Virus record (IMG/VR): IMGVR_UViG_3300035156_000067
Location: 1-52,287 of that record
Length of the DNA stretch: 52,287 nt
Reading direction: 5' to 3' (one strand)
From: a virus
Lineage: Duplodnaviria; Caudoviricetes
Position 1 is the first letter of the stretch, and every line of letters begins with the position of its first letter. Below, piece after piece: positions 5,586 through 45,818 of the stretch. Below the pieces are notes generated by a model, which made no database searches, was not told the DNA's origin, and saw nothing but the letters and a program-made list of their open reading frames with translations. Both the position numbers and the translations under genes were made by a program.

Positions 5586-6010
5586 ACAGCGCGCTTACGG
5601 TTTTCAATCGGTTGCAGTCCGACGCTCTGACCGCTTCCGAACTGGACACCTTCGACGGCCTGCCCGCTATCTTCGACGACAACGCGCCCGACGGCTTCGT
5701 ATTCGGCAGCGATCTGGTCATCATCATCGCGGCCCCGACCCGCAACGAGGCCGACCCGACCTTCTCGGAACAGGCTTGGACCGTTGAGCGGGACCTCAGG
5801 CTCTACATGAAGCACACCGGCTCCAACGCCCGCCTCGATGCTGTGGCCGAACACGTCCGCGACCTGTTCCACCTGAAACCGGAAGACCTCTACGTCGACG
5901 GCGGCACGGTCACGATCTGCACCGCCTCCGGTCCCGTCGCCTCCCCTGCCTCTGATCCATCCCTCTTAGGACGCCGCGTCTCGCTGCGTCTGACCATTCA
6001 GGAAACCTGA
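5582..6010 (+). CDS. Tail terminator (DUF3168-like)
   Basis: Synteny before the tail tube gene; IFDD.AP and VRDLFH motifs. Confidence 0.7.
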   Translation: MNSALTVFNRLQSDALTASELDTFDGLPAIFDDNAPDGFVFGSDLVIIIAAPTRNEADPTFSEQAWTVERDLRLYMKHTGSNARLDAVAEHVRDLFHLKPEDLYVDGGTVTICTASGPVASPASDPSLLGRRVSLRLTIQET

Positions 6011-11143: not shown

Positions 11144-11568
11144 TGCATCCAATGCTGAAGCGACAGGCCGCGACACAAGCCTGCATGGACCGGTTCGCGT
11201 TCAAGCCTGTCGTCCCCGGCGTCCGCGACTGCGGCAAACTGGCGGCGCATGCGATCCATAAGATGGGCCGCTCGGCAACACTGCTCACCGGTACGCGGCA
11301 CAAGACGTTCGCCGGCGCCGTGAAATACATCCGTGGCCTCGGCTTCAAGGATCTGGTCGAGTTGATGGACGCTCTGGGCCTCGACCGCATTCCGCCAGCC
11401 TCAGCCCTGCCCGGCGACATCATCGCCCTGCCCTCGGAGGAAGGCGACGGCTTCGGCTGCTCGCTCGCCATAGCGCTGGATAACGGCCGCATCCTCGGGC
11501 TGAACGCAGCCTCTGGCCTGATTGAACCCATGATCCCGCACCTGTTTGTCGCTGCCTGGAGGGTCTGA
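11143..11568 (+). CDS. NlpC/P60-like tail assembly protein
   Basis: G.RDC and A.PGDI motifs; precedes the tail tip gene. Confidence 0.7.
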   Translation: MHPMLKRQAATQACMDRFAFKPVVPGVRDCGKLAAHAIHKMGRSATLLTGTRHKTFAGAVKYIRGLGFKDLVELMDALGLDRIPPASALPGDIIALPSEEGDGFGCSLAIALDNGRILGLNAASGLIEPMIPHLFVAAWRV

Positions 11569-17262: not shown

Positions 17263-18002
17263 TGACCCTTTCGATCACCGCGCCGGGCTCGGCGAACCTC
17301 AAGTCCAACCTCGACGGCGGCGAACATGTCGTGGTCCATTCCGAGGACACGACGCAGCGCGCGGCGCTGTTGGCTGCTCTGGCCGCTCTCGACCCTGACG
17401 TGGGCTTGGCTGCCGTCGTTACGGCTCTGGGCGGCACCCTTGCCATATCGGCCTCTGCCCTTCCCCTCCCTGCCGGAGCTGCTACTCAGACCACCCTTGC
17501 CGCCCTGTTGGCCAAGATCATCGCCGCTCCCGCCACGGAAGCCAAACAGGACGCAGGGAACACCGCTCTCGGCCTGCTGGCGACCCAGACCACGGCGGCT
17601 GCCATCCTCGCCAAGCTGTCGGCCGATCCGGCGACGCAGACCACCCTCGCGGCGGTTCTGGCCAAGATGATTGCCGCCCCGGCGACTGAGGCAAAGCAGG
17701 ACACCAACACTGCTGCCGTCGCTCTGGTCGGCACCCGCGCTCACGGTACGCCAGCCGCCCGCGTCGCTGTCGCAGGAACCACGGCCTACTCCACCGCCAT
17801 CACGGCAACTGAGGTTCTACTACACGCATCGACCCGCTGTTTCGTTCAGGCTGTCGCCGGGACCGGGACGCCAGCCGTCACGACCGACGCCATCCCGCTC
17901 GAGATCGGCGAGAAGTTCTATCTGCGCATCACCTCGGGCCAGCGCATCGGCGTCATTCAGGACACCGCAGCCGGGTTCCTCAACGTCGTGCCGGTGGCCT
18001 AA
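17262..18002 (+). CDS. Ala/Thr-rich repeat protein (putative fibre shaft)
   Basis: Repeated ATQTTLAA.LAK.IAAPATEAKQD units. Confidence 0.55.
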   Translation: MTLSITAPGSANLKSNLDGGEHVVVHSEDTTQRAALLAALAALDPDVGLAAVVTALGGTLAISASALPLPAGAATQTTLAALLAKIIAAPATEAKQDAGNTALGLLATQTTAAAILAKLSADPATQTTLAAVLAKMIAAPATEAKQDTNTAAVALVGTRAHGTPAARVAVAGTTAYSTAITATEVLLHASTRCFVQAVAGTGTPAVTTDAIPLEIGEKFYLRITSGQRIGVIQDTAAGFLNVVPVA

Positions 18003-20712: not shown

Positions 20713-20923
20713 GAGCCTGCGCCGCGATGTTCCGGGCGCCGATCTCCCGGCAGACGATACGGCGGGCTCATGGGTGGCGTTCTCCGATGCCCAGACCGGG
20801 CGGCTCGACGTGGCCAACTCCAACAAGCGGGCCGTGGTCGAGATCGTGGACGCCTGCGATCGGCAACAGGCCGCGATACGTCAGGCACTGAAGCCGAAAC
20901 CGTGGTGGCGCTTCGGCCTCTGA
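20576..20923 (+). CDS. Outer-membrane lipoprotein spanin (Rz1-like), overlapping
   Basis: Signal peptide with LACGAC lipobox; Q.GRLD.AN motif; +1 frame overlap with the i-spanin. Confidence 0.8.
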   Translation: MLKSSLRPVLMSASAMSLTLACGACASGPSMPTILAAVQCGPLVPESLRRDVPGADLPADDTAGSWVAFSDAQTGRLDVANSNKRAVVEIVDACDRQQAAIRQALKPKPWWRFGL

Positions 20924-20992
20924 TTTCAGTTGTCCAAGAATCTAGGATAACTGAAATCGACCGATCATATTGGCGGCTCCATCCAAATGATC

Positions 20993-21030
20993 AGCCCGGG
21001 TCGGTCCTCACGGATCGGCTCGGGCTTTTT
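20993..21030 (+). terminator. Late-operon intrinsic terminator
   Basis: AGCCCGGGTCGGTCC-TCAC-GGATCGGCTCGGGCT followed by TTTT. Confidence 0.85.
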
Positions 21031-21083
21031 GCGTTTTGGGCCCGTGCCGTGCAACGGTGCGGTCAATCGTAGGGAGCGCGTAG

Positions 21084-21876: not shown

Positions 21877-22087
21877 GTTTGCAGCCGCGCTTCCGATCCA
21901 GTGCGCCCGTGGGGATAACCCGCGCCGGTTTGCAGCCGTATCATTGAAAACAGCCAACAAGTCACGGCCTGCAAATCCTTGCACCCCGGTTCGATTCCGG
22001 GTCAGGCCTCCATCGCGGATTCAAGGGGTTAGGTCGATTTCTGCCTAACCCCTTGGTCTCCGGTTTGCATAGGAGTTTGCAAACTCC
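21877..22087. repeat. Integrase arm-type repeats around attP
   Basis: GTTTGCAGCCG at 21877 and 21928; GTTTGCA at 22063 and 22075; palindrome GGAGTTTGCAAACTCC at 22072-22087; 12-bp inverted repeat at 22022-22055. Confidence 0.65.
21969..22012 (+). mobile_element. attP: attP core: 3' half of tRNA-Cys(GCA)
   Basis: CTGCAAA anticodon loop, CCCGG-TTCGATT-CCGGG T-arm and GGCC-TCCA end; no 5' half; abuts the integrase 3' end. Confidence 0.88.
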
Positions 22088-23129
22088 GTTCCCGCTTTGG
22101 CCTGTAGAACCGCGCCCAGAGGCGAGTCGCGTTCTTGATCGCAACAGCTAGGCGATCGACATAGACGCCTTGCGCCCCCCTCTCGTCGGCTATTGGGTGA
22201 CCGCTGCAATAAGCCGTTTCCTCAGCCGTCCAGCCCATCCCCCGGCGGCTGGTGATGAAGGTTCCGCGTAGGTCGTTGAAGGTCCGGTCCTCAACCCCGG
22301 CCTTGGCCGTCATAAGCTGGAAGTCGGAGCGGAGCCCGTTGCCGTTCGGGTTGAAGGGCCGCTCGCGGGGCGTCGAGAGTATGGTCGTGCATACCCGAGG
22401 CGCATCAGCCAACATCGCAGCGAGGGTCGGAGAGATTGGGATCGCGACCGGGACGCCGGTTTTCAGGCGCTTGGACACGATGACGTTGGACTGGATGGCG
22501 GACCACGGCAGGACGAGAAGGTCTTCCTGCGAAAGGCCAGTCTCGAGCGCGAGGATGACGGCCCGCTGGATCGCCGGCGATGACGCGGCGAGGATGGCCT
22601 TCACCATTTCAGGCGTCCACACCTTCTCAGTCCGATCAGCCTTGTAAACATCCTCGATGCCGCTGGCCCGGTTGTGCGTCACCAGCCCGCGCTTGCCGCA
22701 CCACGTCAGCATGGCGCCCAGAACCGAGATTGCGTAGTCCGCCTGCCGGGGCGAGGTCTCGGCCATCTTGTCCCGCCACTCGTAAAGGACGCCCGCGATC
22801 TTCGGCGACTGGATGGCGGCGATGGAGAGCTTGGCGAACCGGGCATGGATCTTGTCGAGTTGCCGGTGATAGTCGCGCTGGGTCAGGGGGCGCAGCTTTT
22901 TGAACTCGGGCGAGGACTTGTAGCGCCAGATCAGGTGCGAGACCTTCCCCTCCTCCGGGGCCCGCCTCAGGACCTCGGCAAGGTTGAAGTGGAAGTCGGG
23001 ACCGCCTTCGCGGCCAAGCGCCTCCATGCCCTCCCCACGGCCATAGTAGCCGTATCGAATGACCTCCCCGCTCGCGAGGGTCTTCTTCTGAAACCAGACG
23101 CCTTTAGGCAGCGTCGTTCTGGATTTCAC
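22029..23129 (-). CDS. int: Tyrosine integrase
   Basis: KTG, FNDLRGT and SGH motifs with a downstream Tyr; adjacent to attP. GTG at 23129 is the likely start. Confidence 0.88.
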   Translation of the reverse strand: MKSRTTLPKGVWFQKKTLASGEVIRYGYYGRGEGMEALGREGGPDFHFNLAEVLRRAPEEGKVSHLIWRYKSSPEFKKLRPLTQRDYHRQLDKIHARFAKLSIAAIQSPKIAGVLYEWRDKMAETSPRQADYAISVLGAMLTWCGKRGLVTHNRASGIEDVYKADRTEKVWTPEMVKAILAASSPAIQRAVILALETGLSQEDLLVLPWSAIQSNVIVSKRLKTGVPVAIPISPTLAAMLADAPRVCTTILSTPRERPFNPNGNGLRSDFQLMTAKAGVEDRTFNDLRGTFITSRRGMGWTAEETAYCSGHPIADERGAQGVYVDRLAVAIKNATRLWARFYRPKRERSLQTPMQTGDQGVRQKST

Positions 23130-23310
23130 AGCGTAGTGCCTCGATCTCAGCATCAATGCTGTCTGGCGTATCATTGGCGGCGGTCGGGCGCACGGTGACG
23201 ATGGGCTTGCCTTCGCCGTCGAACCTAATGTCGTAGCTCTCTACGCCAGCCAGTCGCATGGCGGATGCAACGCGGGCGAGCTCTACCTTGCGAAACCGGG
23301 CCGCGCTCAT
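23104..23310 (-). CDS. Putative excisionase/recombination directionality factor
   Basis: Small gene overlapping the integrase start; ARF...EL.R...A pattern. Confidence 0.55.
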   Translation of the reverse strand: MSAARFRKVELARVASAMRLAGVESYDIRFDGEGKPIVTVRPTAANDTPDSIDAEIEALRCEIQNDAA

Positions 23311-23513
23311 CTCGTGTCCTTGGTGGCGAGATTTGGTTTCACTCCGCCTGACGGTTTATCCGGTTCTTCGTACCAGCCCGCCCTTACGGCCTGCTTTGAC
23401 AGGTTTCCGCTCGCATCGAATACGTCCACGCCATTGATGTGAAACGACCCATTTCGCATTCCCATGCAATCGGACAGGCGCTGAGATCCGTCCTTACTTA
23501 CGAAGGTCGTCAT
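23307..23513 (-). CDS. Hypothetical protein
   Basis: GAAGGAG RBS; ATGA overlap with the next gene. Confidence 0.6.
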   Translation of the reverse strand: MTTFVSKDGSQRLSDCMGMRNGSFHINGVDVFDASGNLSKQAVRAGWYEEPDKPSGGVKPNLATKDTR

Positions 23514-23592
23514 GACGACGCTCCTTCATCGGAATTGTTAGCTCCGCCTGACGGCTGCGTACCTAGCGGGTCTGGTGAGGGGGTCCGGGTCA

Positions 23593-23847
23593 TCACTCGC
23601 CCTCGTGTTCGATGCGGCGCATGGCCAGCGGTTCGTCGGCGTCGAGCGTGAACATCCAATAGTGGAACTCAACGGCATCAGCGATTTGTTGGACCGGGAC
23701 GCGCAGGGCCGAAGCGGCGTCACCGAACGTGGGCGCGGTCCATTTGCCGGTGTCGGCATAGCGCTTCTCACCGGCATTGATGGCCCATTTCTGAACCTTG
23801 TTGGCGAAGTCGGCCATTGCGTAATCAAAGTCGGAAGCGGCGGTCAT
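23593..23847 (-). CDS. Hypothetical protein
   Basis: ATGA-coupled chain of small genes. Confidence 0.6.
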   Translation of the reverse strand: MTAASDFDYAMADFANKVQKWAINAGEKRYADTGKWTAPTFGDAASALRVPVQQIADAVEFHYWMFTLDADEPLAMRRIEHEGE

Positions 23848-24176
23848 TCGCCCGCTCCTTCAGACAGGATGGCGTCGATGATGGCGGTGAAGGATGAGCG
23901 AACATGGTCGGGTGTCGTCTGCATGTACGGGAGCTCGTCACGCCCCGCGCAGACCATCTCGACGTCAGGCTCTCGGATTGCCAGTAGGCCGGCGCGGGCG
24001 AGGTCGAGATAGAGATCGGGATTATTGTCGTAGAGCGTCGCGCCCTTGAAACGATCGCCATCACGTTGAGCAATGGCCCGGCCCATTCTCTCGAGCATGG
24101 TGGCGGGCGTGTCCGATTGCTCGGTAGGTATGAGCCCGTCGGGCGAATGAAACCCTGACCCTGATCCGCTAGTCAT
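23844..24176 (-). CDS. Hypothetical phage protein
   Basis: M.ERM.RAI...AR....AIREP...M pattern; ATGA overlaps at both ends. Confidence 0.65.
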   Translation of the reverse strand: MTSGSGSGFHSPDGLIPTEQSDTPATMLERMGRAIAQRDGDRFKGATLYDNNPDLYLDLARAGLLAIREPDVEMVCAGRDELPYMQTTPDHVRSSFTAIIDAILSEGAGE

Positions 24177-24472
24177 GATGCAACTCCGAGGGCTTGGTCT
24201 CGGGCTTGGTCGAACGAAACGTCGAACAGCGTTTCCATGTCGTCCACCAGCGTGAAAGCCGCGCTGTTTCCGTTCTGACGATTGATCAGGGCCGTGTGGT
24301 ACTTGGTCAGCGCCGCTCTACAATCTGCTAGAGCTTCGAGAAGGGCGGTGGCGTCGGCGGTGCTGACCAGCGTCAGGGAGCCTTCAGGGTCGCCCGCGTA
24401 GTGTCCGAACGGGCTAGACAGGCTTTCCTTCAGCCTCTCAATCAGCTCTGCGGTGTTGGCGGGGACGGTCAT
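24173..24472 (-). CDS. Hypothetical protein
   Basis: ATGA overlaps. Confidence 0.6.
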   Translation of the reverse strand: MTVPANTAELIERLKESLSSPFGHYAGDPEGSLTLVSTADATALLEALADCRAALTKYHTALINRQNGNSAAFTLVDDMETLFDVSFDQARDQALGVAS

Positions 24473-24639
24473 GCCTTACCACCGGATTGCTGAACACGAT
24501 CGAACGCCTCTTGTAGCTCTGCGAGGACGCTGGGGCTGATGACGTAATCTTCGTTGTCAGGCGTCACCGCGCCGACCGGCTCAGCGTTCTCCAGAACTGC
24601 AAAAACCGCAGCTTGCAGATCGTTCATTGCATCACCCAT
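24469..24639 (-). CDS. 56-aa hypothetical protein (not in the ORF track)
   Basis: MGDAMNDLQAAVFAVLENAEP...SGGKA; completes the coupled chain. Confidence 0.55.
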   Translation of the reverse strand: MGDAMNDLQAAVFAVLENAEPVGAVTPDNEDYVISPSVLAELQEAFDRVQQSGGKA

Positions 24640-25081
24640 TGGTCTTGCCTTCTTTGTTGGAGGTTATGGTTTCATTTGCTTCGCAAATACCGCAGGTGCT
24701 GGAGGAAACGCTCTGATTTACCTTTGGTTTGGCCACCTTGATCTTTGCCGATCCAAGCTTAGTCAGTTTTGCCCTGCTCGCGCTGTCTGGATGAATGCCG
24801 AGAAGGCCCAGACCGCATAGGTGCGCCACCGTTTCCACTGGCCACGGCCCACCTTTTTCGGAATCTGCCTGAAACTCCGACCAGTTCGCCCGCGCCCACC
24901 ATCCTAGATCGGTCTCCCGGCTAAGGGGGCAAACCTTGCTGGCCTGCTTTCGGATCAGACCATAGCCCTTCGCTGCACTTAGGCAGGCCATCAGCACAGG
25001 TGGCAGTTGACTGGAAACTCCCGCCTCCCGCTCGGTGGGCATGGAGCCGCTTGGCGGAATAATCCCAGAATACTCGGTCAT
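24632..25081 (-). CDS. Hypothetical protein bracketed by inverted hairpin repeats
   Basis: Coupled overlaps; repeat copies lie in both termini. Confidence 0.6.
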   Translation of the reverse strand: MTEYSGIIPPSGSMPTEREAGVSSQLPPVLMACLSAAKGYGLIRKQASKVCPLSRETDLGWWARANWSEFQADSEKGGPWPVETVAHLCGLGLLGIHPDSASRAKLTKLGSAKIKVAKPKVNQSVSSSTCGICEANETITSNKEGKTNG

Positions 25082-25266
25082 GCAGGGGTCTCTGGGTTGG
25101 TGCGGAGAGACGCGAAGTAGGCGTATTCGTCACGGACACAGCGCGCCACAGATCGAGAGTTCCAGTACCAGCCTTCGCCGTATACGTTCCGGTTCAGAGC
25201 GTCTTTGACTTGCCAGCCGCCGTCATCCACGACGCGAAAAGGCGCCACGAAAACTATCTCGTTCAC
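25078..25266 (-). CDS. Hypothetical protein
   Basis: GTGA/ATGA overlaps; GAGG RBS. Confidence 0.6.
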   Translation of the reverse strand: MNEIVFVAPFRVVDDGGWQVKDALNRNVYGEGWYWNSRSVARCVRDEYAYFASLRTNPETPA

Positions 25267-25703
25267 TTCGTCACCTCTTCATTCGGGAGAGGGGGAAGGG
25301 CTGCGAACTTGAGCGGGCGAACAAGGCGGATGCGGGGGCCGCCATCAGGGCGCTCGTGCGTCAGGCGATTATGCCAGATGCCCATGAACTGTTGTTCGAA
25401 AGCCCAAGCGTCAGCGTCTCCGGAAGAGGTGGCTAGGGCGGCTACGACCACCTTGTGGATGTCCGTCTTCTTGGCTGCCGAGAGAGACAGGAAGCCCTCG
25501 ATGCCCGCGACGCAGCGATCGTATGCGTCCTTTTTGACAGCCTCCCCGCCCCCTTCCGGTGCGGATTGAACGGGGGATGCTGCGTAAAGGGGTGTTCCGA
25601 TTGGCACGTCAGCGGACCTGAAAGCCGCCATCGTGAAGCCGTCCGTTCCGGGCATTGAGCCCGCGACGCCGACCGGCACGACTTTATAGGGGTGGGCGGT
25701 CAT
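25263..25703 (-). CDS. Hypothetical protein
   Basis: ATG at 25703 overlaps the upstream stop. Confidence 0.6.
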   Translation of the reverse strand: MTAHPYKVVPVGVAGSMPGTDGFTMAAFRSADVPIGTPLYAASPVQSAPEGGGEAVKKDAYDRCVAGIEGFLSLSAAKKTDIHKVVVAALATSSGDADAWAFEQQFMGIWHNRLTHERPDGGPRIRLVRPLKFAALPPLPNEEVTK

Positions 25704-25936
25704 TTCGAATATCCGAGTGCTGGAGTGATTGAGACGCGGGCCAGTCGCCAGCCCTTGCGGTAGGCGCGCTGCCACACCTTTGAGGTCGTGAGGCCGTCGT
25801 GTCCGCCATGCCGCCAGTCAGCCACAAATCTGGCCATAGACCCGGCGCGGGTTCCTGAGACGGAGTAGATGTCCACCTCGACAAAGCCCCATTCTGGCGG
25901 CGTCAGAACCGCCCATGCGAAGGTCACGGCCCTCAC
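25700..25936 (-). CDS. Hypothetical protein
   Basis: Coupled overlaps. Confidence 0.6.
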   Translation of the reverse strand: MRAVTFAWAVLTPPEWGFVEVDIYSVSGTRAGSMARFVADWRHGGHDGLTTSKVWQRAYRKGWRLARVSITPALGYSK

Positions 25937-26592
25937 GCCCCCTCTCCGCGCTTCGTATCGAGGAGGGCTCGCCGGGCGTTAATCTGCTCGACGGTCGCCC
26001 ATTCGTCAGGGGCCTTGGCGTTATCCCATCCGCCGTGTTCGTTCATGGCCTGCCAGCGACCCTTGATGCCGCGTCGGAACTGCTCGCTGGAGGGCTTGTA
26101 TGCCTGCCAGCGATACGGCGACCACGTATGCCCGTAGATCGGTTCGGCGGACCTCGGAGGTGCATCGGACCGCCATTCGATTTGAGCCTCCAGCTCCTTC
26201 ACCCGCTGGTCGTCAGGCGCGGCTAGCGTGGCTTTACGGTACGCGGCCCACGGCGTGTCAGGCGCACGCTCCCCCCGTTCGTCATCAGCTATTGATGGGG
26301 TGAGGGCGCCGCTCAGGGCGAGGATGGCGCGGAGGTCCAGAGCATTGACAACGACCGTGTCGCCCTCACGCCAATCGAACTCGTTGGCGGCGGAAGTCAG
26401 CCGCTCGACAGCCTCCCGCATCCCTCCGACATCACCCGCCTGCAAGGGAGGGGGTGGATAGACGGAGTTCATGCTGTTGGCGAAAGAGGTCGCGTCTCTC
26501 TTTTTGGAGAACCGCGCTATCGTCTGTCCGTCGCTCTCGATGGCCCATCCATCAGGATCGCCTTGAACGACTACGACACCCACGCCGCTCAC
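25933..26592 (-). CDS. Hypothetical mosaic protein
   Basis: Coupled overlaps; Trp-rich C-terminal module. Confidence 0.6.
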   Translation of the reverse strand: MSGVGVVVVQGDPDGWAIESDGQTIARFSKKRDATSFANSMNSVYPPPPLQAGDVGGMREAVERLTSAANEFDWREGDTVVVNALDLRAILALSGALTPSIADDERGERAPDTPWAAYRKATLAAPDDQRVKELEAQIEWRSDAPPRSAEPIYGHTWSPYRWQAYKPSSEQFRRGIKGRWQAMNEHGGWDNAKAPDEWATVEQINARRALLDTKRGEGA

Positions 26593-26870
26593 GCCTTCAC
26601 CTGTTGAGCTTGGTTTACTTCGCCAAGAGGCTCCGTACCGCAGGTGCTTGGGGATGCGGCGGGACCAATGATCTTGATCGTGCAGATGGTCTCGCCCTCA
26701 GATACGATGTCGGCCTGCATGCCGATGCCGATGTGATCCATGACGGCCTTGAGAGCGTCGCTCGTTAAGTCGTAGCGAGGTTCCTTGAACCCCATCCCAT
26801 CCTTGGTTGGTCGTCCGGCGAAGATGCGACCCGAAAGCGCGGCGGTCGCGAGGCGGATGGGATTGCTCAT
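26589..26870 (-). CDS. Hypothetical phage protein
   Basis: LSGRIFAG...DLTSDAL.AV motif; coupled overlaps. Confidence 0.65.
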   Translation of the reverse strand: MSNPIRLATAALSGRIFAGRPTKDGMGFKEPRYDLTSDALKAVMDHIGIGMQADIVSEGETICTIKIIGPAASPSTCGTEPLGEVNQAQQVKA

Positions 26871-27778
26871 TTTGAGACCTCTTCATTCGGGAGTTCCCAC
26901 CCGGCAGTCGCCGCAGCGAGGTTTTCTACGTGGCTCTCCCGCGTCCCGGTCCAGAGCGCTGGAACAGCCTTGACCTCAGGACCAATAGCGTTTGCTCGAT
27001 CCGACCATTCGACGGCAGTTTCGTAGTTCGGAGCCGGATAGATGTCGTCCGGGCCGCGAGCATGCATCATCCAGAGCAGGTAACGAGCGGTATCCCATTG
27101 ACCGGCGGTCTCGTCCGCCTGCTCGGTGGGTACGAAGCCCGTCTCGGGCGTAGTGAAACCCTTATCCTTCTCAGTAGGGAGTGAAGAGCTTGGCTTACTC
27201 GCCGAAGACGGCTCCGTACCCGCCGTCGATGGGGATGCAGCGCCACTCAGACGGAAGGCGATGATGCAGCAAGGGCCGCTCGGCACGTTCCACGATGCGG
27301 CGTCGGACGGCCTGTTCATCCACGACCGCTTCCAATCATCGACATAGTCCACCATCAGCCCCGGAACCGGGTTCTCCCCTCCGCTCCACGGGATCCAGCC
27401 TTCTGCGTCAGGACGACCGATGAAGGCGAATGACTTCGGCGATGAGTTTCCGAACGACGTGCCGTTCAGGTAATCGCCCGACCAGCCGTCGCCGTGGATG
27501 AAACGAAGCCATGCGACCCGCCCGTCTCGATGGCGGATAAGGTCACCCGCCTCGCCAACCGGCGGCATGGCCTGACCGGAAGCATCAGCCACAGTCTCGG
27601 TGGGGATTTCCAAGTCGCTCAGCGTCGGTCCGGGGTCCTGACCCATCGCTATCAGCTTGGCGGCATCATCTTGCAGGGCCGCGTCCATGACGGGATCGGT
27701 GCTGTAGATGCCGGTCCCGGTGGGGATTTCCTGCAAGGAAATAGAACCAAAATCTTCCATGGGGTGGTCGGTGTTCAT
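26867..27778 (-). CDS. Mosaic protein reading through a back-to-back repeat junction
   Basis: ATG at 27778 overlaps the upstream stop; GWIPWSGGENPV...IIAFR module fused to a GPDD...AP module. Confidence 0.65.
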   Translation of the reverse strand: MNTDHPMEDFGSISLQEIPTGTGIYSTDPVMDAALQDDAAKLIAMGQDPGPTLSDLEIPTETVADASGQAMPPVGEAGDLIRHRDGRVAWLRFIHGDGWSGDYLNGTSFGNSSPKSFAFIGRPDAEGWIPWSGGENPVPGLMVDYVDDWKRSWMNRPSDAASWNVPSGPCCIIAFRLSGAASPSTAGTEPSSASKPSSSLPTEKDKGFTTPETGFVPTEQADETAGQWDTARYLLWMMHARGPDDIYPAPNYETAVEWSDRANAIGPEVKAVPALWTGTRESHVENLAAATAGWELPNEEVSK

Positions 27779-28140
27779 GCTTGCACCTGAGCTTTGCGTT
27801 CGCGACGTTCGCGGTTGCGACGTTGTTCGCGAGATTCCGGCCGAATGTTCTGGACCTTCATGCGAAGGGTGCGCGGCATCCACGTCACGTCAGAGGACAG
27901 AAGCCCTCTGCCCATGATTTGACACTGGCCAGCCGCAGCGCCGATCCGCATCCCCTCCGAGCGCGAGACAAAGCGGCCTTCCGACGTCCAAAACCCGTAA
28001 GTGTCGCTCATGTCCTTCTGATAAGGATCGGGGCGACCAAGGCTCGCGCGTAGCTCCCAATGCTCTCGAAAGCCGTGATGCGTGACGCCATCGCCATCGA
28101 TCAATGCAACCTCGACAAGTCGTTCTGTTGGTTTCGTCAT
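27775..28140 (-). CDS. Hypothetical phage protein
   Basis: GF.TS.GRFVSR.E...I...AGQ...L.S.D.W motif. Confidence 0.7.
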   Translation of the reverse strand: MTKPTERLVEVALIDGDGVTHHGFREHWELRASLGRPDPYQKDMSDTYGFWTSEGRFVSRSEGMRIGAAAGQCQIMGRGLLSSDVTWMPRTLRMKVQNIRPESREQRRNRERRERKAQVQA

Positions 28141-28311
28141 TCAGAAAAGCTCCATCTGTTGAGAGTTGGCGCGATCAGCCTCAAGGGCTCGGCGCTCTGC
28201 GTTGGCGGCCCAGGTATCGAGGACCGAGGCGAAGGCACGATCGCAGCGCATGTCCGACTGCCGGCGCACATCGGCCTCAGTGCGGAGAACAGCGGCGGTG
28301 TGGCGGCTCAT
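28141..28311 (-). CDS. 56-aa protein ending QMELF (not in the ORF track)
   Basis: ATGA-coupled to the MTase; resembles 43283-43465. Confidence 0.65.
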   Translation of the reverse strand: MSRHTAAVLRTEADVRRQSDMRCDRAFASVLDTWAANAERRALEADRANSQQMELF

Positions 28312-29321
28312 GCGGCGAGCCTTTCGGCTGGGGCCGCGTCCATGTAGGCACCGATCAGGTTCGTGAACGCCTCGACGTCGATCGCGTCACCGAACCCTGA
28401 CAGGAGGCCCATATTTTTGGGATCCGCATCAGCGAGCGGGCTAAGTCCGGGTTCAACCGGGCGCCAGAGTCCATCACGGCCGAGGAGCCAGTCAGGGCCG
28501 CCGCCATATTCAGGGTCTGGTTCGGCCCGAATGGATCGCCACCCTGCCCCCGATGACCATCCGTCACAGTCGGAGTAGGCCAGACGGACAGAAGGGCCTG
28601 ATCGCCCAGATAGAGCGGCACCGTGCTCTGGTTGGCGTTGCGCTTCCGGAAGTCCGCGCACTTCGCCATAGTCTCGTCCGAGCGCGGGCGATCCGTCACG
28701 GCTGGGGTCGCCCAACCGGATGCCCGTGCCGCCATATCCAAGGTCACCTGAGCTTTCGACCCGTCCGGTTTTCGGCCAGTGACCGTCGTGCCATGGGGCA
28801 CGGTCTGACCACCACTCGGCGTTGTCGGCGTCGGCCACGAAGCCAAAGCGCTGGCGTCGGTGCGCGCCTCCGAAGCCCGCAGCCGGTATATCAGGCGTCC
28901 CGATGGCGTAACGCTCGCCCTCCAGGTCACCTGAAACAAGATCGAGCCACTCGATCGCGTTCGCAGATTGCTCACCAAAGATGCAGACAGGCCGGCGCTG
29001 GCGGATGAGCCGAAACCATTCCGGCCATAGGTGGCGCGGGTCGTCAAATCCGAGGCCGAGCCCGGCTTCCGAGAAGGGGCCGCAGGGGCAAGAGCCTGTC
29101 CAAACAGGTCGGTCATCTGGCCATCCGGCACGACGCAGGCAGAGGCTCCAGAGACCGATCCCGGCGAAGAAATGATGCTGGTCGAAACCGGAGAGGTCGT
29201 CGGGTTGGACTTCCTCGATCGAGCGCTCGTCAACGATGCCATGAGCGATCTCGCCCTCCTCTATGAGATTGCGAAGCCACGCGGCCTTCTTGCGGTCGAA
29301 CTCGTTGTAATAGGCGGCCAC
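28308..29321 (-). CDS. DNA (cytosine-5) methyltransferase, catalytic polypeptide
   Basis: FFAGIG (I), GSCPCGPFS (IV), GEQ (VI), HRRQR (VIII) and GFGDAI (X) motifs. Confidence 0.88.
   Translation of the reverse strand: MAAYYNEFDRKKAAWLRNLIEEGEIAHGIVDERSIEEVQPDDLSGFDQHHFFAGIGLWSLCLRRAGWPDDRPVWTGSCPCGPFSEAGLGLGFDDPRHLWPEWFRLIRQRRPVCIFGEQSANAIEWLDLVSGDLEGERYAIGTPDIPAAGFGGAHRRQRFGFVADADNAEWWSDRAPWHDGHWPKTGRVESSGDLGYGGTGIRLGDPSRDGSPALGRDYGEVRGLPEAQRQPEHGAALSGRSGPSVRLAYSDCDGWSSGAGWRSIRAEPDPEYGGGPDWLLGRDGLWRPVEPGLSPLADADPKNMGLLSGFGDAIDVEAFTNLIGAYMDAAPAERLAA
28355..29116 (-). CDS. Nested alternative-frame MTase subunit (WxTP repeats plus motif IX-like segment)
   Basis: Open frame of up to 295 codons wholly inside the MTase gene; three W[PA]TP modules; LNPDLARSLMRIP..W. 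Start is uncertain (ATG 29116 assumed). Confidence 0.7.
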   Translation of the reverse strand: MTDLFGQALAPAAPSRKPGSASDLTTRATYGRNGFGSSASAGLSASLVSNLRTRSSGSILFQVTWRASVTPSGRLIYRLRASEARTDASALASWPTPTTPSGGQTVPHGTTVTGRKPDGSKAQVTLDMAARASGWATPAVTDRPRSDETMAKCADFRKRNANQSTVPLYLGDQALLSVWPTPTVTDGHRGQGGDPFGPNQTLNMAAALTGSSAVMDSGARLNPDLARSLMRIPKIWASCQGSVTRSTSRRSRT

Positions 29322-29355
29322 GGTCAGCCCTCCCCTTGCGTAACGGAGGGGGTCT

Positions 29356-29535
29356 TCATCCTTCTGCTCCGGGATTTTGATGGTCTATTTCGCGTTGCGA
29401 AATCCCCACCGAGAGCGTGTCGGCGTTATCGCTTACTGGACGCATCACCTCGGGAAGCCGGTCTAGGCCGACGAGATGGATGCCGATGGCCACGGCCTGA
29501 AGCTCAGCGGCAAGGCGGGCGTTGGAGACGGTCAT
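29356..29535 (-). CDS. 59-aa hypothetical protein (not in the ORF track)
   Basis: ATGA-coupled to the upstream MTase. Confidence 0.5.
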   Translation of the reverse strand: MTVSNARLAAELQAVAIGIHLVGLDRLPEVMRPVSDNADTLSVGISQREIDHQNPGAEG

Positions 29536-30422
29536 GCGGCCACGCTGACGTTGGCGAACATGCCCTGCTCATCGCTGATGCGACGGCGAGCGATCTCGGC
29601 ATATTCGGGGTTCAGCTCGATCAGGACGGCACTGCGTCCGAGACGATCAGCGACAAGTCCGGTCGTGCCAGCGCCGCCAAATGGGTCAAGTATCGTGTCG
29701 CCCTCGCTACTCGAGCAGACGATGCAGCGCCTTGCTATTTCGGGCGTCATTGGCGCGGGATGCTCAGTCGCGCCCGATGGCGAGACCCTCCAAACACTTG
29801 AGCTAAACCAGTCCTCGCCCGGATTGCGGACGCGGCTTGGGCCATTAGGGGTCAGCAGAAAAATGTAAGAATGTGAGACGGACGGGCGGTCCTGCCGAGG
29901 CGGTTCGGTGGCCGTGCCTTTATCCCAGATGATCGTCTTGCGGAGATACCACCCATCGGCCCGGAGGCGGTCGGCGACCTGAAACGGAGTCAGCGAGAGG
30001 TCGCGAACCTTGTACCCCTTCGGCGGCGACCGCCATCCCGTGCGCTGTTGCAGGCTGGTCAGTTTATGGCGCTTGGCGGCCCTGCTCCCGCCGCCGCCGT
30101 TTCCGCCGGCGGCATAGGTATCGCCCAGCTCGATCCACAGCGATCCGTCTTGCGCAAGCGTCCGCCGTACCTCTCGCATGACTTCAACCAGAGAGTCGGC
30201 GAAGTCTGCCGGACACCCCTCCGTGCCAAGCTGTCCGTCCGCTTCGTAGTCACGTTGCCGCCAGAACGGTGGGCTGGTTACACAGGCCGTCACGCTTCCC
30301 GTGGCGACGTCAGCGAGCCGGTCCCGACAGTTGCCCGTGAGGAGTGACAGTGACGTCTGCTCGGTAGGTACTCGACGGTCTTCCGGCGAGTGAAACCCAA
30401 CCTTTCCATCAGGATATGTCAT
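29532..30422 (-). CDS. DNA amino-methyltransferase (N4-C/N6-A, beta class)
   Basis: TSPPF catalytic motif precedes HPA and LDPFGGAGTT SAM-binding motif. Confidence 0.9.
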   Translation of the reverse strand: MTYPDGKVGFHSPEDRRVPTEQTSLSLLTGNCRDRLADVATGSVTACVTSPPFWRQRDYEADGQLGTEGCPADFADSLVEVMREVRRTLAQDGSLWIELGDTYAAGGNGGGGSRAAKRHKLTSLQQRTGWRSPPKGYKVRDLSLTPFQVADRLRADGWYLRKTIIWDKGTATEPPRQDRPSVSHSYIFLLTPNGPSRVRNPGEDWFSSSVWRVSPSGATEHPAPMTPEIARRCIVCSSSEGDTILDPFGGAGTTGLVADRLGRSAVLIELNPEYAEIARRRISDEQGMFANVSVAA

Positions 30423-30787
30423 AGCGTGGGCTCCGAAGCTTTGGCGGCAGCTCGGAGAGCCTGAACGACTTCAGATTGGGTGCGCTTGGGGGCGTCGTTG
30501 AAGCCCATAGGGGAGCAGCCGTGCACGGCTATGAACGCGGCTTGCAGGTTAGCGCGTAGATCACCATGCTCCACATATCTGCGGCCCAGAACCTTCTCAA
30601 AGGCCCCGTCTGCGCACCAGCAGGCAGCCTTCGGTTCGTCGCCGAAGTCCACGATACGTCCCGCCGAGTCGCGGGCCCACGCATGCTGTATCCAAGCACC
30701 CGGCTTATCCAGCAGATCAGCAGCAGCGTTCAGAACACCCGCCACACCCTCGCCAGACCCTGAAGCCTCTAGGCTGGAGTTATCCAT
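30419..30787 (-). CDS. Hypothetical phage protein
   Basis: AADLL...W.Q...CWCA.GA...FND...RT..EV..ALR pattern; GGAG RBS. Confidence 0.7.
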   Translation of the reverse strand: MDNSSLEASGSGEGVAGVLNAAADLLDKPGAWIQHAWARDSAGRIVDFGDEPKAACWCADGAFEKVLGRRYVEHGDLRANLQAAFIAVHGCSPMGFNDAPKRTQSEVVQALRAAAKASEPTL

Positions 30788-39978: not shown

Positions 39979-40515
39979 ATGTACCTCGCGCTCGACCTCG
40001 CAACCGAGACCGGCTTCTGCGTCGGGGCTGCCGACACCGGCGAAGTCCCGACGCTGGGTCACGTCCGCATGCCGTCCACTGGCCCAGATGTGGGTCAGTT
40101 CCTGGCTGCGTGGCAGGACTGGCTGGACGCAAAGGTCTGCGAGGTCGAGCCGACCCTCATCATTTTCGAGGCCCCGATCCTTCCGTCTGAGACCCAGATG
40201 TCGACGACCCGGAAGCTTCAGGGCCTCGCAGGGGTCACTGAAATGGTCTGCCACCGCGCCGGTATCGAAGTCGCGGAGCTGACGACCAGCACCGTGAAGA
40301 AGGGCCTCACCGGCAACGGCAGGGCCAGCAAGTCGGACATGGTCCGCGCCTGCCGCGCCTACGGCTTCAACCCCCACACCTACATCAAGAAGGGCGAAGA
40401 ATCGTCCGACGAGGCTGACGCCTTTGGCATCTGGCTCTGCGCCTTACGCCTTCGCCACCCGACCCATGCCGGACGCTGGGACCCCATGAATTTCACACCG
40501 AGGACCGCCGCATGA
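39979..40515 (+). CDS. RuvC-like Holliday junction resolvase
   Basis: LALDLA..TG, FEAP, VKK.LTGNGRASK..M and DEADA motifs. Confidence 0.88.
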   Translation: MYLALDLATETGFCVGAADTGEVPTLGHVRMPSTGPDVGQFLAAWQDWLDAKVCEVEPTLIIFEAPILPSETQMSTTRKLQGLAGVTEMVCHRAGIEVAELTTSTVKKGLTGNGRASKSDMVRACRAYGFNPHTYIKKGEESSDEADAFGIWLCALRLRHPTHAGRWDPMNFTPRTAA

Positions 40516-41306
40516 GGTACTTACAAACCCGAGACGAACAGCGCGAGTTCTGTGCCGAATGGCGCGCTGGCGTTCCTATCACCGAGCTGACCGCCCGATA
40601 CGGTATCAGCCGCAGCGCCATGAATGCGCATCGCCGGAAGCTGAACCTTCCAGAGCGCGGCGAAGTGGCTGGATGGACCCCTGCCCGCCTTGCCCTCGCC
40701 CAGCGCCTCTATCAAGTCGAAGGCCGTTCCGCCTCTCAGGTCGCGGCTGTTCTGGGTCTCGGATGCACCCGCAACGCCGTCATCGGCAAGGCGCACCGGA
40801 TGGGATGGGCTAAGGCTCGCAATCAGCAGCCGTCCGACCCGTCCGTGCTGACGGTTCGCGCCCATAGGGTCGTCCGGTCGCGCGTGAAACCTCCAAAGCC
40901 CGGCCCCGGCGCCAAGACCCCCGGCACGTTCAGCCTCATGTCTCAGGCGACATCAACGGCAACCGAATCCGTTCGCAAGGAACGCGCCGCCGAGGGTCAG
41001 AAGGCCATCGCCCGGGCTAGCGTTTCGGATGTCCTGAGCCCTAACGCCGTGCCGTTCCTCGACGCCCAACACGGCTGCAAGTGGCCGATTGGCGAGGGGA
41101 TGGCGATGATGTCGTGCTGCAACAAGATCGCGCGCGGCGTTTATTGCGAAGGTCACGCAGCCGTCGCGTTCTCAGCTTTCCAGCCTGCCGAACGTGACCG
41201 CGCCGACCGACGGACCTCAAGCTTCACCCGCCATGACCGTATCGCGACCCCGCGCAAACAGGCGGCCACTGACGGCCTGTGGGACGAGATCAGGAACGCG
41301 GCGTGA
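40512..41306 (+). CDS. gcrA: GcrA-family transcriptional regulator
   Basis: WT..R......EG.SASQVA..LG..TRNAVIGKAHRMG and CKWPIGE...CC......YCEGH; extra N-terminal HTH. Confidence 0.88.
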   Translation: MRYLQTRDEQREFCAEWRAGVPITELTARYGISRSAMNAHRRKLNLPERGEVAGWTPARLALAQRLYQVEGRSASQVAAVLGLGCTRNAVIGKAHRMGWAKARNQQPSDPSVLTVRAHRVVRSRVKPPKPGPGAKTPGTFSLMSQATSTATESVRKERAAEGQKAIARASVSDVLSPNAVPFLDAQHGCKWPIGEGMAMMSCCNKIARGVYCEGHAAVAFSAFQPAERDRADRRTSSFTRHDRIATPRKQAATDGLWDEIRNAA

Positions 41307-42754
41307 TGGCAGGGCACCGCACCAGCGTCCGGCGCTTCGCTTCCGCCGAGATCGACACCTCCCGCTCCACTGGCTTGAAAGCCGATCACCCCGCCCTGTC
41401 TGAAGGCCGGACTATCTTTCCCACGACCGTCAGCAGCAGCAAGGCCAGCCCCAGGTTCCTCGTCTCGGGCCATAACAACCCGAAGCTCGGCAAGGCTGTC
41501 CTGAAGGGGCCTCGCACCGGCTGGCCGATCTATCAGCTCTCGCTCGAGGAGCGCGCCACCTGTCCCCGGACCTGCGCTCAATGGGCGGACTGCTACGGCA
41601 ACGCCATGCCGTTCGCCCGGCGCCATACCCCGGATGTCGACTTCGAGCGGTTCCTTGTCGCCGAGATCATTACCCTGTGCCGCGCGCACCCTGAGGGCCT
41701 CTTGGTCCGACTGCATGCCCTCGGCGACTTCTACTCTGTCGAGTACGTCTACATCTGGGCCCGGCTCATCACCGACTTTCCTCAGCTTCACGTCTTCGGC
41801 TACACGGCCCGCAAGGTCGATGATGCTGACCCGGATAGCGCCCGCATTGCCCGCGCCATCTACCTGCTGACCGAGTCGGCATGGGATCGGTTCTCGATCC
41901 GCACGTCGGGAGTGTCGACGGCCCGCTCGCGCTCTGTCGTGGTCGACGAAAACCCGATGCTGGCCGACACGATCGTCTGCCCTGCTCAGACCTCCGACAC
42001 CGAGGCCTGCGCTTCCTGCGGGCTGTGCTGGGCATCAGCGGCGCGGGACAAGACTATCGCCTTCCTGAGGCACGGCATGAAGACGCGAGGCCCGAAGGCC
42101 GCGAATGATGTCGTGGCTGTCCCTGCCGCCAAGATCGTCGCTGTCGCCGCACCCGCACCTAAGGCGCCGCCCGCCACAAAAGCCCCGGCGACCGACCGCC
42201 CCCTGTCGCCGGGATGCGCGAAGGCGTTCGCCTACCTCACTGACGCCGCCGATGCGGACGGCAAGGTCTCCGCAACATGGGCCGAGATTTGCAAGGGTTC
42301 GGGCGTTCCGTCGGGATCTATGGGCTACACGATGGAGACCCTCGTCAAGCGGGGCGTGATCTCAATCGCCATCAAGGGCAACGGGCGTGGTGACCCGGTC
42401 ACCTATCAGATCGGAAAGACCAGCGCGGCTCCGGTGACAGCAGCTCCGGCCGCTACCAGGCCCGCCTACGTCTCTCCGATCAAGCTGACGACCAAGGTCA
42501 CGCCCCGGATGGTGACGCGTGGACCCGCTGCCCCATCGGCTGACGACCTGTCCGACATCCCGGCCAACGATGCGAAACCTCGCGGTCTGGTGGCCCGTAA
42601 GGCTGGCCAATGCGCCTACCCGACCAACTCACCCGCCATCGGTCGGGGCGAGGACACCACGTTCTGCTGCGAGCCGTCCGTCGGGCGCCTCTCGTACTGC
42701 AAAGAACACACCGCCCTGATGTTCAGCCGTCCGGCCAAGAAGGTGGCGGCATGA
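41306..42754 (+). CDS. Gp88-like Cys-rich protein fused to wHTH and GcrA-type C-terminal domain
   Basis: N.KLGK, TCP..C....CY, RLH..GDF and CPAQ...CASCGLCW; C-terminal CAYP...FCC......YCKEH. Confidence 0.7.
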   Translation: MAGHRTSVRRFASAEIDTSRSTGLKADHPALSEGRTIFPTTVSSSKASPRFLVSGHNNPKLGKAVLKGPRTGWPIYQLSLEERATCPRTCAQWADCYGNAMPFARRHTPDVDFERFLVAEIITLCRAHPEGLLVRLHALGDFYSVEYVYIWARLITDFPQLHVFGYTARKVDDADPDSARIARAIYLLTESAWDRFSIRTSGVSTARSRSVVVDENPMLADTIVCPAQTSDTEACASCGLCWASAARDKTIAFLRHGMKTRGPKAANDVVAVPAAKIVAVAAPAPKAPPATKAPATDRPLSPGCAKAFAYLTDAADADGKVSATWAEICKGSGVPSGSMGYTMETLVKRGVISIAIKGNGRGDPVTYQIGKTSAAPVTAAPAATRPAYVSPIKLTTKVTPRMVTRGPAAPSADDLSDIPANDAKPRGLVARKAGQCAYPTNSPAIGRGEDTTFCCEPSVGRLSYCKEHTALMFSRPAKKVAA

Positions 42755-44892: not shown

Positions 44893-45818
44893 AGAAGGGC
44901 CAGAACTTTTACCGCCGTGATCCGTCCAAGGCGCTGTCAGGCATGATCGGTCTGAGCCTAGAGGAACGCGGCGTCTACAACACCGTCCTCGACCTGCTGT
45001 ACATGACATGGCGTCCCGTCGAAGACGACCGGCGCTTCATCGCCAACTGGTGCGGCTGCGCTGTCCAGAAACTGAACCCGGTCATCGTTCGCCTGATCGA
45101 GAAAGGGCGCCTCATCACCTTCGTCGAGGGCGGACGGACGTACCTGTCAGACGAGGCCTTCGAAGCCGAGCGCACGACCGTGAAAGGCGCTGCGACGACC
45201 CGCTCCGGAAGGGCTCAGGTCGAGGAGAAGTCAGAAGAAGTCGAGGAGAAGTCGGCAGGTGTCAGCCTAAACCCCGCAGTTCTCGATACCGAAACCGCCG
45301 AAAATCAATCGGTTACGCCCCTAGAGAAGAGTAGAGTAGAGAAGAATATACCCCCTAACCCCCAAGGGGGAAAACAGCGACGCCCCGAAACACCCATCCC
45401 CGATGGCTGCCCTAGCGCCGAGATCGTTGCCGCAATGCAGGCTGAGGCCCGGCAGGCTGGGGCAAACATCGATCTGACCCATGAGGGCCGACAGTTCCAC
45501 GACTGGTGGCTGGCCAAGGACGGGAGAAACCGGGATTGGGACGCCTGCTGGCGAACCTGGGCTCGCCGAGCGATCAAGGCCGCCCCCAAAACCGCTGCCG
45601 CAAACCTCACAAAGCCCTGTTCCGCTGGACAGGACGAGGTCTGGCGGCGACGCATTCGGGAGTTCAAGGCCAACCGCTTCTGGCCCGTCGACGATCTCGG
45701 TCCGCGCCCCGGCCACCCCGGCTGCAAGGCCCCCGTCCACGTCCTCAGCGACCTTGGCTTCAAGCCCGAACACGCCAACGACACCCCGCCCCTTCTCGCC
45801 AAGGATCAAGCCGCATGA
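44889..45818 (+). CDS. Replication initiator (DUF1376/YdaU N-terminus)
   Basis: LSLEERGVY..LLDL.Y N-terminus; F.DWW...DW.ACWRTW C-terminal domain; GTGA overlap. Confidence 0.8.
   Translation: MKKGQNFYRRDPSKALSGMIGLSLEERGVYNTVLDLLYMTWRPVEDDRRFIANWCGCAVQKLNPVIVRLIEKGRLITFVEGGRTYLSDEAFEAERTTVKGAATTRSGRAQVEEKSEEVEEKSAGVSLNPAVLDTETAENQSVTPLEKSRVEKNIPPNPQGGKQRRPETPIPDGCPSAEIVAAMQAEARQAGANIDLTHEGRQFHDWWLAKDGRNRDWDACWRTWARRAIKAAPKTAAANLTKPCSAGQDEVWRRRIREFKANRFWPVDDLGPRPGHPGCKAPVHVLSDLGFKPEHANDTPPLLAKDQAA
45219..45372. other. Putative replication origin within the initiator gene
   Basis: GTCGAGGAGAAGTC twice, 21 bp apart, followed by a purine/AT-rich tract. Confidence 0.5.

Follow-up and report, generated by a model that had tools for sequence, protein, structure and literature searches.

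How the small, fast-changing modules of phage early regions are rejoined in frame is poorly understood. Those regions are the main reservoir of such genes, many of which act against host defences, and several described systems have a bearing on the matter. In integrons the attC site has the boxes R'' (RYYYAAC) and R' (GTTRRRY) at the ends of a palindrome, with IntI and attI beside the array; each cassette carries one complete site, the sites are of uniform orientation, and each folds into an imperfect hairpin of ~57-141 nucleotides (nt) with extrahelical bases. Repetitive extragenic palindromic (REP) sequences and REPINs are present in numerous extragenic copies where the bacterial genome has a RAYT transposase as well. 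In shufflons and other invertible segments (Rci/sfx of R64, Gin/gix of Mu) short repeats of alternating orientation are translated inside coding sequence. There is reportedly a further paper, by Comeau and colleagues in 2014, on the PeSL cassettes of phages. In the part of the description by Arbiol et al. (2010, PMC2839356) drawn on here, PeSLs are short stem-loop repeats that bound non-essential genes in the hyperplastic region of T4-type phages, and recombination between the repeats shuffles the genes. Mosaic, or 'polyvalent', multi-module phage proteins have been treated in two papers of which parts are used here (Iyer et al. 2017, PMC5512222; Smug et al. 2023, PMC10684548). The present analysis concerns a virus of the Caudoviricetes (Duplodnaviria), IMG/VR record IMGVR_UViG_3300035156_000067, and within it a junction inside open reading frame (ORF) 26867-27778 where two inverted copies of a repeat stand back to back within 27100-27250; by 'the window' is meant the whole stretch of that record, 52,287 nt. 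The reading leaned towards, tentatively and at slightly short of an even balance, is that of a gene boundary without a stop codon, made from connector repeats which either function as recombination joints or are the scars that such joints left.

The ORF and its parts, in the order in which they are translated, are as follows.

26867-27778, minus strand: ORF of 303 codons, a chimera made up of module 0, module A, the connector and module B, whose ATG overlaps the upstream stop codon as ATGA
27587-27727, minus strand: module 0, residues 18-64, with 18-nt direct repeats on both sides that are 17/18 identical
27203-27562, minus strand: module A, residues ~73-192, mostly near the N-terminus of long multi-module relatives
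27184-27250, plus strand: 3'-end-type repeat copy (nhmmer), one arm of the hairpin; its minus-strand reading is ...AASPSTAGTEPSSASKP, residues 177-199
27162-27190, no strand assigned: spacer of 29 nt forming the hairpin loop; it reads SSSLPTEKDK and has TGA and TAA out of frame
27100-27169, minus strand: 5'-end-type repeat copy (nhmmer), the other arm of the hairpin; it reads KDKGFTTPETGFVPTEQADETAGQ, residues 204-227
26885-27082, minus strand: module B, residues ~233-298, a small beta-beta-alpha-beta-alpha domain

The core of the minus copy ends at 27161 and that of the plus copy begins at 27191. The original prediction had placed the copies at 27120-27161 and 27192-27225, 30 bp apart; the sequence and both copies stand, with bounds that the profiles set at 27100-27169 and 27184-27250 and a spacer that comes to 29 nt. 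It had also claimed that the arms pair almost fully, and when both strands are folded they do form one long imperfect hairpin with mismatches and bulges, better than shuffled sequence whether treated as DNA or as RNA. As DNA, 27115-27230 gives -24.1 kcal/mol on the plus strand (z -2.61, equalled by 0 of 200 shuffles) and -25.5 kcal/mol on the minus strand (z -2.77, 1 of 200); as RNA, 27100-27249 gives -70.6 kcal/mol on the minus strand (z -4.38) and -73.3 kcal/mol on the plus strand (z -3.82), with 0 of 200 shuffles equal in either case. Of 2081 genome windows of 150 nt, those at the junction come 22nd and 26th on raw energy; once energy is regressed on GC content they move up to 5th and 7th, and the one at 27101 is the sole single hairpin among the ten best GC-corrected windows. 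GANTC (CcrM) sites, as in the Caulobacter CIR repeats, are absent from 27091-27260.

Translation through the hairpin, likewise part of what had been predicted, is borne out by the frame of ORF 26867-27778, which has no stop codon across the junction; nor is there an in-frame ATG, GTG or TTG between the junction and module B. Since neither stop nor start intervenes, both copies would be translated as connector. The junction DNA is identical in a 47.7-kb contig of sequencing run X1, possibly the source sample, and in run X2, from a second study, a 151-nt contig covers 27068-27218 without a difference from the genome, taking in the minus copy and the spacer but just 28 nt of the plus copy. Because the contigs of both runs agree with the junction DNA, its origin as an assembly artefact is unlikely.

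A search of the ORF against 1.84 billion representative proteins gave 266 matches at E values up to 0.001, and the best 150 of the 266 were used, namely the query and 149 outside proteins that were rescanned locally; the protein counts given below refer to that set. The only full-length match is the ORF itself. Module A alone is matched by 82 of the 149, module B alone by 64 and module 0 alone by two (P0094, of 165 amino acids, and P0112, of 57), with modules A and B together in none: the single protein flagged for both, P0106, is aligned through a low-complexity linker and is without the module B motif. Standalone module B proteins are 77-118 amino acids long, and in other multi-module proteins the same module is N-terminal, central or C-terminal; for instance, it ends a 476-amino-acid multi-module ORF in viral contig L001 and stands first in multi-module ORFs at two places on the Brevundimonas sanguinis chromosome. 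Match coverage per residue falls from 70-84 over module A to 6-12 over residues 196-230 and returns to 65 over module B, the trough coinciding with the repeat-encoded residues 177-199 and 204-227. Such a pattern is that foreseen by the original prediction, which took the two halves for unrelated-looking modules shuffled with breakpoints at the repeat, rather than for parts of a protein whose homologues always have both. These comparisons support a view of the ORF as a chimera of independently occurring modules, with the breakpoints at the repeats.

Structure prediction is in keeping with the division. AlphaFold2, run with a shallow alignment, gives module B a predicted local distance difference test score (pLDDT) of 81-93 and residues 150-222 a score below 50, and has no secondary structure anywhere in residues 155-232; in module 0 there is a helix at residues 29-44, with pLDDT ~87-89 over residues 31-50. 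On this model the connector of ~55 residues that fuses module A to module B is predicted to be unstructured. Module A is poorly modelled, and with that limit a Foldseek comparison of the ORF model to the PDB yielded nothing at E values up to 0.001. No Pfam family was found for any module of the ORF. To judge from the parts of the papers on mosaic proteins cited above, the likeness to those is that independently occurring modules lie in one polypeptide, in many architectures and in an early or accessory region; the differences are that the proteins here are small (~100-650 amino acids), that the modules are without a Pfam family, and that the connectors are reused and are repeated as DNA in both orientations, under a rule of orientation and position described below.

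Reuse of connectors extends to the relatives. Within the same best 150 of 266, PVEASGSE is present in 28 proteins with 27 different following sequences, and PLALGGQ in 14 with 13; EAQDE/A occurs 26 times, ASPLPEGG/GGG stands in seven proteins in seven different preceding contexts, and VPTEQ is found in three outside proteins (P0038, P0088 and P0147) with a different module after each. In the 476-amino-acid ORF of L001 a perfect 25-nt direct repeat (5833-5857, 5971-5995) encodes two linkers, SSAPEARE.... The small early-region proteins of this phage and its relatives appear to be built from promiscuous modules with a limited set of reused connectors. As side observations, L001 has a further repeat, of 29 nt and 76% identical (5149-5177, 5575-5603), encoding two other linkers, EAPA.EG.GE; the small connector vocabulary of the relatives, which includes PVEASGSE, PLALGGQ, EAQDEGAAGE and HPSPTPAAD, stands before many modules; and the multi-module relative P0006 has a Lar restriction-alleviation domain (Pfam PF14354).

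The two arms of the junction belong to a family of nine long copies and three 18-mers, all within 23.3-30.4 kb of the phage. The members away from the junction are:

30337-30405, minus strand: 5'-type copy, whose core begins 24 nt past the ATG of the N6/N4 DNA methylase gene 29532-30422
25008-25073, minus strand: 5'-type copy, whose core begins 15 nt past the ATG of ORF 24632-25081
24096-24162, minus strand: 5'-type copy, whose core begins 21 nt past the ATG of ORF 23844-24176
26606-26669, plus strand: 3'-type copy within the C-terminal tail that DUF7446 gene 26589-26870 encodes, with a core-to-stop gap of 19 nt
24661-24713, plus strand: diverged 3'-type copy in the C-terminal tail of ORF 24632-25081 (nhmmer E value 0.05)
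23538-23568, plus strand: truncated 3'-type copy, untranslated, 25 nt past the stop codon of ORF 23593-23847
23331-23378, plus strand: 3'-type copy that has an insertion of 11 nt and belongs to the C-terminal tail of ORF 23307-23513
27594-27611, minus strand: 18-mer akin to the right flank of the 5' type, reading EIPTET, at the boundary of module 0 and module A
27714-27731, minus strand: direct copy of the 18-mer, 17/18 identical, reading EIPTGT, at the start of module 0
29398-29415, plus strand: inverted copy of the 18-mer, 16/18 identical, near the 3' end of small ORF 29359-29535

A combined profile built from six copies recovers the four minus copies, two strong plus copies and three weaker plus copies, whose bounds by this profile are 24661-24713, 23542-23568 and 23331-23376, and to avoid circularity a second profile was made from the four minus copies alone. 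The four best other matches of this minus-only profile are all on the plus strand and within 23.3-27.3 kb (E values 0.008, 0.011, 0.063 and 0.1); in 60 shuffled genomes, matches of at least 8.5 bits numbered none in 56, one in four, and two or more in none. Pairs of copies in opposite orientation score 15-19 against a background whose 99th percentile is 13, the 18-mer has three matches in the genome where 0.08 are expected, and a sequence-only model of nine cores (R1) finds eight sites in the genome, every one of them in 23.3-30.4 kb. R1 misses the diverged copy at 24661-24713, in which a 19-nt stretch agrees with the 26606 copy at 17 of 19 positions; self-comparison by short-word blastn is too insensitive for the diverged copies. 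By these measures the repeat family is a real one. The plus arm at the junction, which is alignable with the copy at 26606-26669, scores 18 against the adjoining minus copy, while its scores with two further minus copies are 17 and 16, and because it is thus not specially similar to its neighbour, the hairpin can be explained without a local inverted duplication.

The orientation of a copy goes with its position. Minus copies are at the starts of genes or modules in six of six cases: the cores of three begin 15-24 nt past ATGA-type starts and the other three are at the starts of modules 0, A and B within the chimeric ORF. Plus copies are at the ends of genes or modules, again six out of six, three being in C-terminal tails with a core-to-stop gap of 19-32 nt, one just past a stop codon, one near the end of a small ORF and one at the end of module A. 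All copies but one are inside ORFs. Nowhere but at the junction does a minus copy come straight after a plus copy, and no other boundary is without both stop and start; it is, so to speak, a boundary caught in fusion. At the level of sequence the picture is of a small set of DNA-repeated connectors that mark every module start in one orientation and, turned round, many of the module ends. The full palindrome is found at one of about ten boundaries, and the solo copies, with no partner nearby, fold no better than shuffles (z -0.99 to +0.40). Short translated repeats of alternating orientation inside coding sequence recall the shufflons; however, no invertase or Rci-like gene is found among the proteins scanned, no alternative coding segments on the opposite strand are evident, the repeats vary in length by indels, and the contigs hold no inverted form.

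What, then, of the integron? The original prediction regarded the palindrome as an intact cassette-cassette junction of attC type, that is, as a folded single-stranded recombination site. An imperfect, bulged hairpin of comparable length does lie between two independently occurring coding units, and its size and extrahelical bases are within the attC range (~57-141 nt), a resemblance that is generic and not attC-specific. However, a regular-expression search of both strands of the whole genome found no RYYYAAC...GTTRRRY pair at 30-130 nt spacing, and neither an RYYYAAC nor a GTTRRRY box occurs in 27000-27350. The only tyrosine recombinase found is a phage integrase matching phrog_1, and no integron integrase came up by Pfam or NCBIfam match at the thresholds used among the ORFs scanned, which were not all of them. 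There is one full palindrome, the other copies being single, non-folding and alternating in orientation; indels alter the lengths of arms and loop between copies; and the site is inside an ORF and not after one. On core sites, integrase and array structure the identification with attC was rejected, which leaves it barely conceivable, and module exchange is not thought to occur by integron-type site-specific recombination.

Marks of conservation are seen at both the DNA and the protein level, to go by the sequences compared. On the DNA side, the two best plus copies remain alike across frame-shifting indels, so that after ...GTEP one reads SSASKP and the other LGEVNQ, and GGGTTTCAC is translated in two different frames. 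The plus copies use at least two reading frames: the copy at 23331-23378 is read in a frame that the other translated ones do not use, and the one at 23538, past a stop codon, is in none. Rare codons are kept in the 5' copies (GTA, used for 2-8% of Val, ATA and TTT). On the protein side, all four long minus copies retain the G-F-x-x-P...[IVM]-P-T-E-[QR] frame despite indels. Could the peptide be what matters? A motif [IVM]-P-T-E-[QRT] after S/T-P-x-G, marking module starts, might be where a polyprotein is cut to set its modules free, or serve as a tag for docking or targeting, with the DNA similarity being due to descent and gene conversion. The frame kept in four out of four 5' copies speaks for it, as do the presence of the motif before module 0 and module A also and SPEGSVPTEQ-type connectors in six other phage proteins; against it are the varied frames and untranslated state among plus copies, the conservation of rare codons, and the leader of ORF 24632-25081, which is missing in two of three outside homologues and degenerate in the third. 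The L001 homologue of the methylase is without the N-terminal extension that the methylase of this phage has. A peptide function is, on this evidence, improbable. Cleavage of the kind carried out by the head protease of T4 was considered and rejected: [IVLM]PTE-type motifs are absent from the structural genes, and with the motif in no structural protein, head-protease cleavage is counted against.

A role at the RNA level would make the hairpin, in a long early transcript, a processing site (for RNase III for example), a stability element, or a coupler or limiter of translation, with the small hairpin in every copy as the conserved unit. The RNA fold is strong; each core folds so that a GGGU/ACCY outer stem encloses an inner one of 3-6 bp whose sequence varies among copies; and the rare codons that are kept preserve GTACC. 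RNase III, moreover, cuts Correia elements at their inverted repeats, according to the part of PMC10969869 consulted. However, both strands fold equally well, so that there is no preference for the sense strand, and the z scores of single copies are weak. RNAalifold gave no consensus structure on a MAFFT alignment of the cores, an alignment that handles indels poorly. With the solo copies partnerless, the full hairpin stays confined to its one boundary. No Rfam family reaches its gathering score anywhere in the window, and in 23000-30600 there is no match even at E values up to 1. Promoter-like sites number 1 where 1.8 are expected and terminator-like sites 5 where 5.4 are expected, none being at the repeats. 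An RNA function seems rather improbable.

The regular alternation of orientation brings to mind mobile units. The repeats may be terminal inverted repeats of small cassettes, or belong to a selfish palindromic element of the kind of the transposable elements of the miniature inverted-repeat type (MITEs), the Rickettsia palindromic elements (RPEs) or the REPINs: units of 0.4-1 kb, both of whose ends are outward-facing (T/G)GGTTTCAC... sequences, that are mobilised in trans and tolerated since their ends stay open in frame, the junction then being two abutting ends or one full doublet. Along the minus strand the copies do fall into minus-then-plus units at 30405-29398, 27611-27184, 27169-26606, 25073-24661 and 24162-23538 with repeat-free genes between them, and the cores are quasi-palindromic. 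By the part of PMC10969869 used here, arms plus spacer of ~110-150 nt are like RPE and Correia elements in size, and palindromic repeats translated in frame occur in Rickettsia; a palindromic repeat of ~100-150 nt that is read in frame, units that are imperfect palindromes, and a hairpin made from an inverted doublet are what the locus has in common with RPEs, Correia MITEs and REP doublets. However, where those have dozens of palindromes there is one full doublet here, no target-site duplication was seen by eye at the unit ends that were read, and the family is confined to 7 kb of one genome, with no copies in the IMG/VR and metagenome scans and chance-level matches in 152 bacterial genomes. 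No transposase was found among the proteins scanned, which did not include every ORF. No homologue has contiguous A and B (best 150 of 266), which argues against insertion into a pre-existing gene, and the composition of the units is the same as that of the backbone genes. Because the regularity of orientation fits units with inverted ends, this alternative keeps some weight, though it is unlikely.

A related possibility, quite unlikely in our estimation, is a gene-cassette system private to the phage, with 0.4-1 kb units, inverted quasi-palindromic ends of 40-65 nt that stay open as reading frames, and an activity that recognises hairpins or ends and would move or swap the units. A cassette would then be expressed alone through ATGA restart or fused to its neighbour, as at the junction, and the whole would amount to a translated, in-operon viral analogue of integron cassettes or REPINs. 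Were the repeats the ends of mobile cassettes in general, a new kind of gene-cassette system in viruses would have come to light.

The reading leaned towards, that of connectors as recombination joints or their scars, takes the palindrome as a 3'-end-type and a 5'-end-type copy of one gene-boundary repeat family, private to the phage, that stand back to back 29 nt apart. The fusion would have derived from an ordinary stop/start boundary, and module exchange would take place in the DNA that codes for connectors, through homologous or short-homology recombination. The hairpin would be a by-product of the inverted arrangement and not a working part, since the plus arm is no closer to its neighbour than to other minus copies and both strands fold alike. 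Genes for a YqaJ-type exonuclease, an RNase_T-like exonuclease and a RuvC-like resolvase are present in the phage and are in keeping with recombination of this sort. If connectors are recombination joints, they would account for the origin of chimeras that are in frame and keep their function, and could serve to predict module boundaries. The PeSLs, in the part of the literature cited above, are intergenic promoter and terminator units in direct orientation; the present repeats differ in being translated inside ORFs and in both orientations, in lacking promoter or terminator signal above chance, and in that no recombination product was observed.

Several points weigh against recombination joints. 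That the inverted form of the start repeat is at gene ends is left unexplained and is a weak point: recombination between inverted copies would invert DNA and not exchange modules, and therefore the strict inverted arrangement is not accounted for by joints. The contigs of runs X1 and X2, where parts of the region are uncovered in X2, contain no recombination event and no joints at the repeats. The original prediction had cassette insertion as the process that creates chimeric proteins; the chimera stands, and insertion as a process found no backing in those contigs. No close relative of the accessory region was found in which breakpoints could be mapped. Repeat DNA was not found outside this genome, so that exchange with other phages through the repeat is unproven. 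The combined profile also matches 11483-11534 on the minus strand, outside the region, with an E value of 0.0046 (2.2 with the minus-only profile). Each core is a weak quasi-palindrome that forms a small hairpin of like architecture (z -2.3 to +0.9, mean -0.83), which hints at a structural constraint that joints do not need. Lastly, the SPEGSVPTEQ-type peptide is kept in proteins of other phages (P0038, P0074, P0088, P0147, P0017 and P0146), conservation that could reflect a role at the protein level.

Searches beyond the genome were made in several ways. Blastn of 26500-27900 against phage records gave no match, and two DNA patterns for the repeat had none in viral (IMG/VR) and metagenome contigs. 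A back-translated peptide pattern hit 70 viral loci, each a lone match within some unrelated conserved protein, and none fits the repeat profile at an E value below 0.3. P0038 was not found in viral contigs. What the two integrase relatives L077 and L078 have in common with the phage is limited to int and a small gene beside it; both are without the repeat and without the accessory genes. R1 has no match in a Brevundimonas genome (G001), which may not be that of the host, and three single matches, which is chance level, in 151 other genomes of that order. The connector alone (residues 172-232) retrieves only the query in a search over proteins of 166-531 amino acids. A search of the literature, which was not exhaustive, found no description of translated boundary repeats with such a rule of orientation.

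As to the genome in which all this takes place, its 127-nt ends are identical (1-127 = 52161-52287), and the virus record lists direct terminal repeats; the window thus represents a 52,160-bp phage genome, either closed into a circle or terminally redundant, with a GC content of ~64%. The phage is temperate, encoding an integrase and a CII-like regulator. Besides the exonuclease and resolvase genes it has one for a DnaB helicase, and two adjacent genes (40512-41306 and 41279-42754) both have GcrA cell-cycle-regulator domains, the second being fused to DUF7227/GP88-like sequence. There are three DNA methyltransferase genes (28308-29321, 29532-30422 and 45506-47236), which together with the GcrA domains point to manipulation of methylation-dependent regulation in the host. 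The GcrA domains, and the relatives that one module has in the Brevundimonas sanguinis chromosome, suggest an alphaproteobacterial host.

The accessory region is on the minus strand between the exonuclease genes and the integrase gene, with its repeat-bearing part at 23.3-30.4 kb. Two further features of the minus-strand block are:

22029-23174: integrase, a tyrosine recombinase matching phrog_1, an ordinary phage integrase
30419-30422, 29532-29535, 27775-27778, 26867-26870, 25078-25081 and 24173-24176, minus-strand genes: ATGA stop/start overlaps

Consecutive minus-strand accessory genes are joined by these overlaps, often as GCATGA, which suggests tight translational coupling along an accessory operon. 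A separate observation concerns 25273-25289 and 26877-26893, an identical 17 nt at the 3' ends of two genes, which encodes ...LPNEEV(T/S)K directly before the stop/start overlap and holds a GAGG Shine-Dalgarno-like sequence for the next gene. GC content at third codon positions (GC3) is lower in accessory than in core genes, and a gene pick by GC3 retained, within 23.3-30.4 kb, two short ORFs on the plus strand, at 28060-28347 and at 30566-30763, with no repeat copy at either.

Two observations lie outside the repeat-bearing part. The strongest GC-corrected fold of the genome is at 20876-21075 (z ~ -4.3) and includes a self-complementary stretch of 37 nt, 20922-20958. It is placed where the plus-strand late genes have ended and the minus-strand block lies ahead, and might represent a bidirectional terminator or a structure of the att region. 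In a plus-strand late gene there is an 81-nt direct repeat, 74% identical with its copies 150 nt apart (17472-17552, 17622-17702), perhaps encoding a domain that is repeated in a tail or fibre protein.

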